DNA of 64,000 nt from Spirochaetia bacterium (GCA_965208575.1 CBDBOV010000005.1:672001-736000), one strand, 5' to 3'. Positions 946-10,034 are shown, counted from the stretch's first letter. Notes: generated by a model from the letters alone, not told the origin. Numbers and translations: made by a program.

Positions 946-990
946 CTACCGATATGTAGGACATTGCGCGAACGACCGACAATTTGGTAG
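946..990. promoter_or_regulatory. Tandem putative enhancer (UAS) sites upstream of the glnA sigma-54 promoter
   Basis: CTAC-CGATAT-GTAG (946-959) and CGAC-AATTTG-GTAG (977-990), 31 bp apart. A similar pair lies upstream of amtB. Confidence 0.6.
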
Positions 991-1031
991 AGGTCAGTGG
1001 CATCCGTGGCGGTAGAACGGCCCCGATGCGC

Positions 1032-1048
1032 TTGGCCCGGAAATTGCT
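1032..1048 (+). promoter_or_regulatory. Sigma-54 (-24/-12) promoter of glnA
   Basis: TTGGCCCGGAAATTGCT has exact GG-N10-GC spacing and lies ~50 nt upstream of the glnA start. Confidence 0.8.
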
Positions 1049-1100
1049 AGCTCAATCGTGACGCGGTCTATGTACGCGTCCATCACGAGGAGGAACACAT

Positions 1101-2522
1101 ATGGCACTCAAGACGCCCGGCGATGTAATGAAGCTGATCGCGGACGAAGGCGTGGAGGTGATCGACATTCGCTTCATGGACTTTCCCGGTCTGTGGCAGC
1201 ATTTTTCGATTCCGTCGCGCGAGCTCGCGGAGGATGACTTCGAGGCCGGATTGGGGTTTGACGGCTCCAGCATCCGCGGTTGGCAAACGATCAACGAGTC
1301 CGACATGCTGGTGAAGCCGGTGCCCGAGACCGGTTTCATCGATCCGTTCATGGCGCGCAAGACGCTGGTGATGATCGGCAACATCAACGACCCGATCACC
1401 GGCCAGGACTACACCCGCGATCCGCGCAACATCGCGCGCAAGGCGGAGGCGTACCTGCGCTCGTCCGGCATCGGAGACACCGCCTACTTCGGCCCGGAGG
1501 CGGAGTTCTTCATCTTCGACGACGTGCGTTTCGACCAGAACGAGCACGAGGGCTACTACCACATCGACTCCGAGGAGGGCCGCTGGAACGCGGGGCGGGT
1601 GGAGAATCCCAATCTCGGCTACAAGCCGCGCTACAAGGAGGGCTACTTCCCGGTTCCGCCGACCGACAGCCAGCAGGATCTGCGCAGCGAGATGATGATG
1701 ACGCTGGAGAGTATCGGCGTCCTGATCGAGGCGCAGCACCACGAGGTCGCCACCGCCGGCCAGGGCGAGATCGACATGCGCTTCGCCCCGCTGGTGACCA
1801 TGGCCGACAACATGCTCAAGTACAAGTACGTGGTGAAGAACACCGCGCGGCGCTACAACAAGACCGCCACCTTCATGCCCAAGCCGCTGTTCGAGGACAA
1901 TGGCAGCGGCATGCACACGCACATGTCGTTCTGGAAGGATGGCAGCAACCTGTTCGCCGGCGACGGCTACGCCGGGCTGTCCGAGATGGCGCTGCACGCC
2001 ATCGGGGGCCTTCTGACCCACGCGGCGGCGCTCATCGCCTTCACCAACCCGACCACCAACAGCTTCAAGCGGCTGGTGCCGGGCTTCGAAGCGCCGGTGA
2101 ACCTGGCGTACTCGCGGCGCAACCGCAGCGCCGCGATCCGGCTGCCGATGTACTCCACCTCGCCGAAGGCGAAGCGGATCGAGTTTCGCTGCCCGGATGC
2201 CTCCTCCAACCCCTATCTCGGGTTTTCCGCCATGCTGATGGCTGCCGTGGACGGCATCACCAACAAGATCCATCCCGGTGAGCCGCTCGACCGCGACCTG
2301 TATGACCTGCCGCCGGAGGAGCTTGCCAAGGTCAGGACCACGCCGGGCTCGCTGCGCGAAGCGCTCGACGCGCTGCGCGACGACCACGAGTTCCTGCTCA
2401 AGGGCGACGTGTTCACCGAGGACGTGCTCGAAACCTGGATCGACTACAAGATGGAGAACGAAGTGACCGCCATCGACCTGCGGCCCCATCCGTGGGAGTT
2501 CGCCATGTACTACGACATCTGA
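1101..2522 (+). CDS. glnA: Glutamine synthetase type I (adenylylatable GSI-beta type)
   Basis: [42 protein letters not shown] motifs. Adenylylation motif DLYDLP. GAGGAGG RBS. Confidence 0.98.
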
Positions 2523-2559
2523 GCGTTCCCTCCCCGGATCCGTTCCGGGAGTGATCCGG

Positions 2560-2594
2560 TCCCCGGCTGCCCGAGCGCGCCGGGGATTTTTTTT
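2560..2594 (+). terminator. Rho-independent terminator after glnA
   Basis: Stem TCCCCGGC/GCCGGGGA followed by a T8 run. Confidence 0.8.
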
Positions 2595-2653
2595 GGCTCC
2601 GCCCGCTCGCGCCGGATGCCGGCATGCGTGCTGACGTGTACACTGGATGTGCC

Positions 2654-6938: not shown

Positions 6939-8297
6939 CGTTCCGCTCCTATAGCGTGTCGTGTACACCTCGAAGTCGGTGTACGCCTCGGCGCCATGCT
7001 CTTCGAGATCCAGTCCGCGCAGCTCCTGGTCGCGGCTCACGCGCAGGCCGACGGTGGCCTTGATCACGCTGAATAGTACCAGAGAGGTGACGAATGTCCA
7101 CGCGAACACGGCCAGCACGCCGACAATCTGGATGCCGAGCTGGCCGAAGCCGCCACCGAAGAACAGCCCGTTGGTGCCGCCGAATTGCTCCTGGGCGAAC
7201 AACCCCACCGCCAGCGTGCCCCACGCACCGACCACGCCGTGCGCGGAGATGGCGCCCACCGGATCGTCGACCATGAGCACGCGGTCGATGAACTGCGCCG
7301 CCAGCACCACCAGCACGCCGCCGAGGAAGCCGATCACGACCGCGCTGCCCGGCGAAACGTTGGCGCAACCCGCCGTGATGGCGACCAGGCCGGCGATTGC
7401 GCCGTTGAGGGCAAACGTGGGATCGGGCTTGCCGGAAATGATCCAGGCCAGCACCAGCGCGCCCACCACGCCGGCGGCCGCTGCCAGGTTGGTGGTGACC
7501 GCGATGGCCGCGATCGACAGGTCGGTGCCCGCGACCGTGCTGCCGGCGTTGAAGCCGAACCAGCCGAACCACAGCAGGAACACGCCCAGTGCCGCCAGCG
7601 GCAGGTTGTGGCCCTGGATGGCGTTCACGATCACGGTTCCCTTGCCGTGGGTCCCGTTGCCGTTGCGCACGTACTTGCCTTCGCGCGCGCCGAGCACGAT
7701 CGCGCCCGCCAGCCCGGCCCAGCCGCCGACCGAGTGCACCACCGTGGAGCCCGCGAAGTCGATCATGCCCAGGTTGCCGAGCCAGCCGCCGCCCCAGATC
7801 CAGTGCCCGACCACCGGGTAGATCAGCGCGGTGATGAACACCGAGTATACGAGGTAGGCCTTGAACTGGGTGCGCTCGGCGACCGCACCGGAGACGATGG
7901 TGGCCGCGGTAGCCGCGAATACCACCTGGAAGATCCAGAACGTGAAGTCCGAAATCCCCTCCGAAACGTCCACCACGGCGCCGCCGAGGAAGAACTTGTC
8001 GGTGCCGATCAGGCCGGCGGCGTCGGCGCCGAACATGATGCCGAAGCCGACCGCCCAGAACGCCAGCGAACCGAGCGAGAAGTCCATCAGGTTCTTCATC
8101 ATGATGTTGGCCGCGTTCTTGGCCCTGGTGAAGCCGGTCTCCAGCATGGCGAAGCCGGCCTGCATCAGGAACACCAGCACCGCGGCCACCAGCGTCCACA
8201 CGGTGTCGATCGCTACCGCGTTGGCGACCGAGTCGGCGAAGGCGGATACGGAGCCGAGCACCAGGAGCGCGCCGGCTATGACGAACAGTCGTCTCAT
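6597..8297 (-). CDS. amtB: Ammonium transporter AmtB fused in frame to a C-terminal P-II protein
   Basis: [31 protein letters not shown] and [11 protein letters not shown] motifs. No stop before the PII domain. AAGGAGG RBS before ATG 8297. Confidence 0.9.
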
Positions 8298-8343
8298 GTT
8301 GTCAGGTCCTCCTTGAAAGGAACAGTTGTGATGCCGTCCACCA

Positions 8344-8360
8344 AGCAACATCCGTGCCAA
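8344..8360 (-). promoter_or_regulatory. Sigma-54 (-24/-12) promoter of amtB-glnK
   Basis: Minus strand reads TTGGCACGGATGTTGCT, a near-perfect TGGCAC-N5-TTGC consensus. Confidence 0.9.
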
Positions 8361-8415
8361 ATGGAGTGCCAGCGTGCCCGGAGCGACCTGACATCGAACC
8401 TCGCGGACTGTTTGC

Positions 8416-8459
8416 CTACGTTTTGGTGGGAATGAAGAGTGGTCCCTACAAAGATGTCA
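8416..8459. promoter_or_regulatory. Tandem putative enhancer (UAS) sites upstream of the amtB sigma-54 promoter
   Basis: CTAC-GTTTTG-GTGG (8416-8429) and CTAC-AAAGAT-GTCA (8446-8459), 30 bp apart. They match the pair upstream of glnA. Confidence 0.6.
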
Positions 8460-8480
8460 GCGCCGACGCTCTGCGGGCGA

Positions 8481-10034
8481 TCAACTCTTGTAGATGGCGG
8501 GATCGATCCGGTACTTGCGCACGCGCAGGCCCATGATGCGTTCGCTGACCATCAGCGAGCGTGCGGCGCGCGCCATGTTGCCGCGTGCCCACTTCAGCGC
8601 GTCCTGGATCAGCTCCCGCTCGATGGCGCCGACGGCGCTCTGCAGGCTGCCGCGCGGAGTGGTGCCGCTCGCCTCCGCCGTTTGCAGGGTGGGCGGCAGG
8701 TGGTGACCGTGGATCACGTCGTCGTTGCTCAGCAGTACCGCGCGTTCGATGCAGTTCTCGAGCTCGCGCACGTTGCCCGGCCAGTGGTAGCTCATCAGCA
8801 TGTCGATCGCCGGCGTGGTGATGCGCTTGATCTCCTTGCGGTGCTCGCGGCCGTAGCGGGCGACGAAGAAGTCGGCGAGCAGCAGCAGGTCGGTCTTGCG
8901 CTCCCGCAGCGGCGGAATGTGGATCGGAAACACGTTGAGCCGGTAGTACAGGTCGGCGCGGAATCCGCCCGACTCGATGAGTTCTTCGAGGTTGCGGTTG
9001 GTGGCGGCGATCACGCGTACGTCGCTGCGCAGGGTGGCGTTGCCGCCGACCCGTTCGAACTCGCCCTCCTGCAGGACGCGCAGCAGTTTGACCTGGGTGG
9101 CCGGCGACAGATCACCGATCTCGTCGAGGAACAGCGTTCCGCCGTGCGCCAGCTCGAAGCGCCCCTTGCGGGTGGAAACCGCGCCGGTGAACGCGCCGCG
9201 CTCGTGGCCGAACAGCTCGCTCTCGATCACCGACTCCGGCAGGGCGGCGCAGTTCACCTTGATGAACGGCTTGGCGGCGCGCGCGCTGTTGTAGTGGATG
9301 GCATGCGCCACCAGGTCCTTGCCGGTGCCGGTCTCGCCGCGCACCAGGACCGTGGTGTCGCTGCGCGAAACCTGTCCCACCAGGCGGAACATGCTGTTCA
9401 TGCCCTCGGAGTTGCCCACCAGGTTCTTCGGCCGGAACCGGTCCTGCAACTCCTCCTGCAGGCGGTTGTTCTCTTCGAGCAGCATGCGCCGCTCCTCGTG
9501 CGCGGCCTGGCGCAGCTTCACCGCCTGCGAAATCATGGAGGCGATGATCGACAGCAGCCGTACGTCCTCCGAGAACGGGGCCTGGGGCGGAAACAGCTTG
9601 TCGGTACTCAGCGAGCCGATCACCGAGTTGCCGGACTTGATCGGAACACAGATGAAGGACAGCTCGGCGAGCTGCGGATTGCTGGCCGCCCCGGTGCGGT
9701 GCACCATGCCCGGTTCGTCGGCGATCTTGCGCACCACGGCCGGCTCGCCCGACTGAATCACCCGTCCGGTCACGCCCTCGCCGATCTTGTACAGGCCGCG
9801 GCGCTGCTGGCTGGCCGACAGTCCGTACGCCGCTTCGATGGAGATCCGCTCGGTGGTGCGGTTGACCAGGCTCAGCACGCCGAGCCGAATCTGCATGTGG
9901 TGTCCGAGCGCTTCGAGCACCGGGTGCACGACATCGCGCAGGTTGAGACTCGAGTCGAGGATTCGACTGATGTCGAACAGCAGCGTAAGTTCGTTGACCT
10001 CGCTTCGAACCGTGGGGGTGGACACAGCCGTCAT
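8481..10034 (-). CDS. Sigma-54-dependent activator, NifA-like GAF-AAA+-HTH architecture
   Basis: N-terminal GAF ([18 protein letters not shown]), Walker A GETGTGK, GAFTGA loop, [19 protein letters not shown] and a C-terminal HTH. No receiver domain. Confidence 0.92.

Follow-up and report, generated by a model that had tools for sequence, protein, structure and literature searches.

The 64,000-nucleotide stretch of Spirochaetia bacterium DNA analysed here (GCA_965208575.1, CBDBOV010000005.1:672001-736000; hereafter the window) contains, between positions 946 and 10,034, a nitrogen-control cluster made up of glnA, glnE, a PII gene, amtB and the gene of a GAF-type sigma-54 activator (Table 1). 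The window lies on contig C5 of the source genome (G000), which comprises 6.5 Mb at 67% GC with a completeness of 95% and a contamination of 5.75%, and whose nearest named relatives are metagenome-assembled genomes of Spirochaetia/Spirochaetaceae. Several of the runs that contain part of the stretch (four runs compared) are labelled as sponge or coral reef metagenome.

The existence of the cluster was confirmed, and it is conserved across a spirochaete order. Mapping of the genes for GlnE, PII and the activator, achieved for all three in 22 family genomes, showed them linked in 21, and glnA and amtB accompanied them in a constant order at every locus read. A preliminary description, made from the sequence, had interpreted the cluster as a self-contained module rewired to bypass uridylylation by GlnD as well as the NtrB/NtrC pair. 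Its identification of an adenylylatable glnA was borne out, the product being a type I glutamine synthetase (GS) with 661 bits against a cut-off of 429 for TIGR00653, and the two sigma-54 promoters it had reported are both present, each preceded by two matching palindromes.

Table 1. Positions of the genes, domains and regulatory sites of the cluster, counted from the first nucleotide of the window (AT, adenylylating half; AR, adenylyl-removing half)
Feature	Position	Strand	Remarks
Palindrome pair, activator type, 5' of glnA promoter	945-960, 976-991	.	31 bp apart; 15.8 and 17.8 bits
Sigma-54 -24/-12 promoter, glnA	1032..1048	+	comparable sites in relatives
glnA, type I GS	1101..2522	+	adenylylation motif DLYDLP (Tyr401)
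GC-rich hairpin and U-run between glnA and glnE	2558..2594	+	possible terminator, weakly supported
glnE, 1298 aa, ACT1-ACT2-AT-AR	2654..6550	+	alternative upstream ATG at 2624
GlnD-derived part of GlnE	2684..3658	+	pre-ACT helices, ACT1 (~2924-3172), helical linker, ACT2 (~3389-3532)
GlnE AT-like nucleotidyltransferase half	3908..4795	+	GYASDIE; acidic triad D510, E512, D557
GlnE AR-like nucleotidyltransferase half	5333..6418	+	NYSSDID; D1015, D1017, D1063
PII, GlnK-type, 113 aa, Ile51	6597..6938	-	own ATG and AGGAG ribosome site; sole PII of the genome
amtB-PII junction	6939..6953	-	base 6951 gives TAT in place of relatives' amtB TAG stop
amtB, ammonium transporter	6951..8297	-
Sigma-54 -24/-12 promoter, amtB-PII	8344..8360	-
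Palindrome pair, activator type, 5' of amtB promoter	8415-8430, 8445-8460	.	30 bp apart; 15.8 and 12.7 bits
GAF-AAA+-HTH sigma-54 activator, 517 aa	8481..10034	-	NifA/DVU1949-like

The ACT module and the order of the GlnE halves

The N-terminal part of GlnE matched positions 660-842 of the GlnD model (E 1.3e-16), and its first 330 residues aligned with the GlnD C-terminal profile over 202 columns (Prob 99.35, E 6e-21). The match spans the entire C-terminal module of GlnD, from the pre-ACT helices through ACT1 and the linker to ACT2. In the predicted structure this region forms two ACT-type folds (mean predicted local distance difference test score 82.4); the fold search of GlnE gave only weak ACT matches and the structure searches returned no solved GlnD chain. 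Judged by these alignments the ACT module is a genuine graft from GlnD, as the preliminary description had proposed.

Downstream of the module, GlnE contains two nucleotidyltransferase halves (PF03710 + PF08335), each having an acidic triad, which is D-E-D in the AT half, and both triads were invariant across 40 sequences. The first half scored 122.7 bits with 3k7d, the adenylylation domain of E. coli, and 115.6 with 1v4a, the N-terminal domain and established adenylyl remover. For the second half the values were 128.4 bits against 1v4a and 94.1 against 3k7d. The G and N signatures that distinguish the motifs of the two halves are visible in the PDB sequences of 3k7d and 1v4a themselves. By sequence, the order ACT-ACT-AT-AR is thus a circular permutation of the AR-AT order of E. 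coli, a feature overlooked in the preliminary description. The assignment of the first half relies on a 7-bit margin plus the motif, the fold search of this half ranked 1v4a first by a small margin (E 6e-18, against 1e-16 for 3k7d), and the second acidic residue of its motif is Glu, not Asp. These points weigh against the permutation and would suit an enzyme whose halves are not functionally permuted, the first removing AMP (or being inactive by the Asp-to-Glu exchange) and the second adding it. We consider such an enzyme very unlikely: 1v4a outscores 3k7d by 34 bits for the second half, the triads do not vary, and AR-first relatives show the E. coli arrangement, with the homolog of the first half in the C-terminal place of AT and the half with the N motif in the N-terminal place of AR.

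The enzyme fell below the cut-offs of all three NCBIfam models for GlnE (PRK14109, 472.8 against 625; PRK11072, 393.5 against 487; PRK14108, 346.6 against 724). Among 176 rows of related sequences, a set that includes duplicates and is biased to near relatives, 158 were AT-first, 13 AR-first and 5 showed a single motif, and all AT motifs read Asp-x-Glu. The sister form, AR-ACT-ACT-AT, was seen in some spirochaetes and, beyond them, in Chloroflexota, Planctomycetota and Calditrichota. Common to both architectures is an ACT pair located directly N-terminal to an AT half with Asp-x-Glu. In a quick ACT-module tree with 53 entries, from which every second AT-first row was omitted for size, the 46 GlnE modules separated from the 7 GlnD modules (support 97) and those of AT-first GlnE formed one group (support 98). 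This grouping fits a history in which an ancestor copied the GlnD ACT pair once ahead of the AT half of GlnE, giving AR-ACT-ACT-AT, after which one lineage would have moved the AR half to the C-terminus. ACT-bearing GlnE is also named in records from Verrucomicrobiota, Kiritimatiellia and Deltaproteobacteria, and the Atlas contained seven ACT-GlnE cluster sets at 0.95 or more. What emerges as the durable finding is a multi-phylum class of GlnE that carries the sensor module of GlnD in two domain orders, here as part of a conserved spirochaete cluster with a distinct one-component regulon, its function being predicted from sequence; homology and the adjacency of glnA suggest that the enzyme adenylylates and deadenylylates GS. 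In the open literature searched we found neither an ACT-bearing or permuted GlnE nor a paper on spirochaete GS adenylylation with PII; subscription journals lay outside the scope of this search and may hold an earlier mention.

The ligand of the module may be a different one. An ACT module that binds another amino acid or docks a partner such as PII, with glutamine, if sensed at all, acting through a catalytic half as in E. coli, would agree with the loss of the Gly of the usual Asp-x-x-Gly loop from ACT2 in the AT-first clade, and would spare carriers that retain GlnD from having two glutamine sensors. According to the accessible portion of PMC6490700, E. coli GlnE is stimulated by glutamine in spite of lacking ACT domains. 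We regard such a role as unlikely, since the whole GlnD module was copied and is kept immediately before the AT half in both architectures, and since the Asp and Phe positions conserved in GlnD-like ACT domains, as given in the part of PMC11190351 available, are retained in GlnE.

Further GlnE forms were seen in relatives. Many family members (G003, G009-G015, G017-G023) encode a second GlnE-like protein of about 1000-1090 aa elsewhere in the genome; none was present in G000. An 802-aa ACT-AT-only GlnE (L235, G369:C28) is the single PF03710 match of its genome, and Atlas clusters of 729-802 aa suggest that such half enzymes are common. A search for shorter split forms yielded mostly contig-cut fragments.

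PII, its junction with amtB, and the one-component activator

Gap-free alignment to solved GlnK and GlnB chains placed Ile at position 51 of PII, in agreement with the preliminary description. The protein keeps G37, Q39, R47, K58, G87-K90, R101 and R103, residues with functional roles in the family. No second PII was found by a search of G000, at its 95% completeness. Tyr51 was absent from all 61 PII sequences more than 50% identical to that of the window, those of GlnD-bearing genomes included; a Tyr51 PII of another clade occurs in 5 of 6 GlnD-bearing genomes and in 6 of 45 GlnD-less ones. As described in the accessible part of PMC4285133, many PII proteins are unmodified and a Tyr51Ala variant of GlnK still controls AmtB, so a PII without Tyr51 is in itself ordinary.

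The preliminary description had also reported an AmtB-PII fusion that tethers PII to the membrane. A single 566-aa reading frame (8297-6597, minus strand) indeed joins the two genes in the window. The read-through is due to one base, at 6951. In the relative G006 the 12-nt spacer is identical and the TAG stop is in place, and all nine other genus members having PII are unfused. Of 93 PII loci in 51 genomes only that of the window was fused to Amt, a count that leaves out three genomes with only weak PII-like matches and considers in-frame Amt exclusively. The 566-aa protein was found on one contig, the identical free 113-aa PII on 39, and the stop base is present in contigs from two other samples that share 98.8% and 97% identity. 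In run X1 about 19 of 45x depth at base 6951 lacked the stop base, which is not independent evidence, X1 being probably the source sample; a bridging contig was absent from the listed pieces. The loss of the stop is probably real and private to the strain, and an assembly error is not favoured as its cause in view of the X1 depth. As a feature of the system the fusion was rejected on the basis of the single locus, the TAG in relatives and the 39 contigs with free PII; tethering by design falls with it, and the fusion does not belong in an account of the system. Since the AGGAG before the PII start codon is intact, free PII could still be made in this strain.

Two side observations concern related genes. 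PII-like domains of other clades lie in frames of 631-763 aa (G048:C5, G043:C48, G059:C1, G036:C304) and may represent fusions to partners other than Amt. G000 contains three more amt genes, none with an adjoining PII (C1:373793, C3:407822, C4:1298424).

The activator consists of GAF, AAA+ and HTH domains and has no receiver domain, as reported before, and it exceeded the cut-off of the nifA model TIGR01817 by a margin of 2.6 bits (531.5 against 528.85). G000 encodes one rpoN and seven sigma-54 activators, of which the other six carry receiver domains by inspection. From 36 glnA and amt promoters an operator motif CCTAC-N6-GTAGG was extracted with an information of 15.35, against 6.7-7.0 in 8 shuffles. 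The palindrome was present in 32 of the 36, mostly in pairs 30-31 bp apart, and three of the four promoters lacking it came from G035 and G050, genomes without the activator. Transcription through a one-component activator, another element of the preliminary description, is supported by this co-occurrence of palindrome and activator.

Sigma-54-like sites alone were at chance level in G000 (149, against 150-188 in shuffles), so that only their combination with the palindrome is informative. A palindrome lay upstream of 5 of the 149 sites and of none in three shuffled genomes, and strong tandem sites numbered three genome-wide, at glnA, amtB and a urt-urease locus, against 0, 0 and 0. The third of these (G000:C5:1054590, minus strand; L197), which was outside the training set, precedes urtA-urtBC, genes of the urtABCDE type, and urease. 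In the complete genome G444 a palindrome pair is located 5' of nifH, behind which stand two PII-like genes and one resembling nifD. The sites at glnA, amtB, urt-urease and nifH point to the activator as a likely general nitrogen regulator, its binding to them being predicted. The GAF region was matched in 149 of 201 Desulfobacterota genomes (E up to 1e-12), a figure that covers several subfamilies. A complex prediction for a PII trimer with the GAF-AAA part gave a score of 0.14, where the mark was 0.32.

Apart from these sites, a strong sigma-54 site, accompanied by a palindrome pair of lesser strength, was seen at G000:C1:107754 (plus strand), about 400 nt before the gene of a 494-aa signal-peptide protein (L198:766-2250) without NCBIfam match, which in our estimation resembles a spirochaete outer-sheath protein. 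No long open reading frame (ORF) lies in between, and an RNA is possible there. In G050 and G035 (L141, L187) an activator of 681-685 aa, with a double GAF in G050, stands beside GlnE instead of the usual one.

As to the remainder of the region, the hairpin between glnA and glnE has a folding energy of -21.9 kcal/mol (z -1.64), was equalled in stability by 16 of 200 shuffles and was missed by the terminator scan. The cluster is flanked on one side by a nucleoside diphosphate kinase gene (484-945, minus strand) and an ORF that by eye is Uma2-like (1-453, minus strand). On the other side lie a PRK08637-type aminotransferase gene (10160-11488, plus strand), which diverges from the activator gene, and an ORF of the DUF4398 lipoprotein-like kind (14161-15474, plus strand).

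Occurrence of the parts with and without GlnD

In G000 the search for full-length GlnD, with a cut-off of 519, returned only the ACT part of GlnE at 38 bits and, at 25 bits, a fragment of HD type. NtrC was not found, the best of five scored receiver-type activators reaching 445.6 of 558.6 bits and the sixth being a near duplicate, nor was NtrB, for which a PAS kinase scored best (115.7 of 240). The search for nifH returned two short P-loop fragments only. The absence of GlnD, a second PII and NtrB/NtrC implied by the preliminary description thus holds at the curated cut-offs.

Within the order the parts keep together. ACT-GlnE was present in 55 of 61 genomes, the activator in 56 and full-length GlnD in 6, with GlnD in 5 of the 55 ACT-GlnE carriers. 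Three complete genomes (G444, G496, G590) have the full set, and GlnD was not found in them. G444, of 2.5 Mb, combines an activator-amt-PII(Thr51) group with permuted ACT-GlnE (L218/L221/L223/L228).

Outside the order this link to the loss of GlnD is gone. ACT-GlnE occurred in 10 of 201 Desulfobacterota genomes, 7 of them with GlnD; in at least 13 of 151 Planctomycetota genomes, with GlnD in 11 of 13; and in 17 of 201 genomes of a Spirochaetota sample, with GlnD in 6. The association was positive in Planctomycetota (p 2e-6), and neither Spirochaetota (p 0.24) nor Desulfobacterota (p 0.74) showed a negative one; these statistics count related genomes that are not independent of each other, and the Planctomycetota figure is a minimum. 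Locus L007 unites the same permuted ACT-GlnE with glnD, glnA, the activator and three Tyr51 PIIs, and L231 likewise joins glnD, glnA, permuted GlnE, Tyr51 PII and activator. Homologs of the activator often stand beside amt, Tyr51 PII and glnD, as in L007, L247, L248, L260 and L261. As a separate observation, G050, G035 and G040 (L141, L187, L138) have glnD, a Tyr51 PII and an AR-first ACT-GlnE that grouped with Chloroflexota in the quick tree.

The ACT graft as a general replacement of GlnD was rejected on these grounds, carriers outside the order commonly retaining the enzyme. The circuit is GlnD-free in the window genome, yet its parts are not made for the absence of GlnD. The preliminary description had understood them as mutually consistent changes, in a circuit that evolved as a whole to circumvent GlnD and NtrBC and in which AmtB tethers PII. 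In its favour all parts stand together in the window, GlnD, NtrBC and a Tyr51 PII were not found, and the X1 depth makes the read-through likely to be real in the strain. We nevertheless judge it highly improbable: the fusion is confined to one locus, close to identical contigs carry the stop, many ACT-GlnE carriers in the three phylum samples have GlnD, the Tyr51-less PII clade extends to GlnD-bearing genomes, and activator homologs lie next to glnD.

Proposed circuit and comparison with known systems

The cluster is probably best read as a vertically conserved nitrogen-control system of one spirochaete order that operates without uridylylation of PII. Gene content, domain order, operator motif and the outcome of the GlnD and NtrBC searches form its observed basis, to which ligands and activities are assigned by homology. 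Glutamine bound at the ACT module would, with fair probability, shift GlnE towards adenylylating, and thereby inactivating, GS at Tyr401, so that PII-UMP is unneeded. PII is very likely an unmodified protein of the GlnK type that responds to 2-oxoglutarate and ATP/ADP and blocks AmtB; in the window strain some of it may arise as AmtB read-through. The activator would bind the paired CCTAC-N6-GTAGG sites and fire sigma-54 transcription under nitrogen limitation, and the assignment of glnA, amtB-PII and urt-urease as its targets can be made with high confidence. Its input could, at about even chances, be inhibition by unmodified PII; a metabolite at the GAF domain, such as 2-oxoglutarate, is a somewhat weaker candidate. 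The parts would be older than the loss of GlnD, functioning beside it in other phyla, and may have allowed rather than answered that loss in most genomes of the order.

Several points speak against this reading. Six of the 45 GlnD-less relatives retain a Tyr51 PII of another clade. Two of the motif-less control promoters have just about 100-125 nt of upstream DNA. The tree is a quick version in which two rows of the AT-first group were mislabelled by pattern, being otherwise shown to be AT-first. A distant NtrBC-like pair is possible, given six receiver-type activators, a PAS kinase and 95% completeness. ACT domains bind many ligands, the effect of glutamine on this one being deduced from sequence, and E. 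coli GlnE responds to glutamine without them.

A broader proposal is tentative and falls a little short of even odds. An undescribed multi-phylum GlnE class would sense glutamine through the GlnD module in two permuted forms; in the spirochaetes the two-cycle cascade would have become one cycle, with a single GAF activator standing in for NtrC and NifA alike (at glnA, amtB-PII, the genes of urea uptake and, in genomes that have them, the nif genes), in a complete circuit free of GlnD and NtrBC. The enterobacterial model is silent on how GS-adenylylating bacteria without GlnD read glutamine, and a sensor on GlnE is the candidate answer of this family. ACT-GlnE represents a natural domain swap by which the glutamine site in ACT modules of the GlnD type might be located, and its permuted and unpermuted forms could show how opposing activities are coordinated. 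With a well-defined operator the nitrogen regulon may be readable from spirochaete and Desulfobacterota genomes, in which databases apply the NifA label to many such activators even where nif genes are lacking. For the engineering of ammonium release, a glutamine switch that acts on GS and consists of one protein may also be of interest.

The activator resembles NifA (TIGR01817) in its domains, and G444 has the same paired site 5' of nifH. It differs from NifA in its targets, glnA, amtB-PII and urt-urease, in a genome without detected nifH. The NifA site has the consensus TGT-N10-ACA, of which no match was present at the glnA and amtB promoters of the window. The activator appears to belong to one family with DVU1949 of Desulfovibrio vulgaris, as compared through proteins with a DVU1949-like C-terminus rather than the full DVU1949 sequence; these are 40-41% identical to it, other subfamilies 44-68%. 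The target operons of DVU1949 presumably include amt-glnB and glnA. According to the available part of PMC4641369, DVU1949 is predicted to act as a one-component regulator on nine operons of nitrogen metabolism and transport, at 16-bp ACA-N4-TGT sites. Both are one-component sigma-54 activators with predicted nitrogen targets and the ACA-N4-TGT core recurs in AT-rich relatives of the window, whereas the sites of the window itself are CTAC-N6-GTAG pairs 30-31 bp apart.

With the enterobacterial Ntr cascade, which the accessible portion of PMC6490700 sets out together with precedents for 2-oxoglutarate at GAF domains and for PII control of NifA, the cluster shares the outputs GS adenylylation, AmtB gating and sigma-54 transcription of assimilation genes; unlike in that cascade, GlnD, Tyr51 and NtrB/NtrC were not found in the window genome. 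Compared to E. coli GlnE (1v4a, 3k7d), the window enzyme likewise has two GlnE-type nucleotidyltransferase halves with acidic triads and a type I GS with the adenylylation tyrosine as its neighbour. It deviates in placing AT before AR and ACT-ACT ahead of AT, in the Asp-x-Glu of AT, in a length of about 1300 aa versus about 950, and in having no PII-UMP available. Its ACT module is homologous to the C-terminal ACT1-ACT2 of GlnD, the uridylyltransferase (UTase)/uridylyl-removing enzyme, and sits, unlike there, on the GS-modifying enzyme without a UTase or HD domain. As far as the available text of PMC11190351 goes, the glutamine response of GlnD depends on its ACT domains. Their relatives include the plant ACR proteins and the ACT-grafted algal amylase AMA2, whose ACT-dependent activation by glutamine provides a precedent for an ACT transfer that confers a glutamine response.

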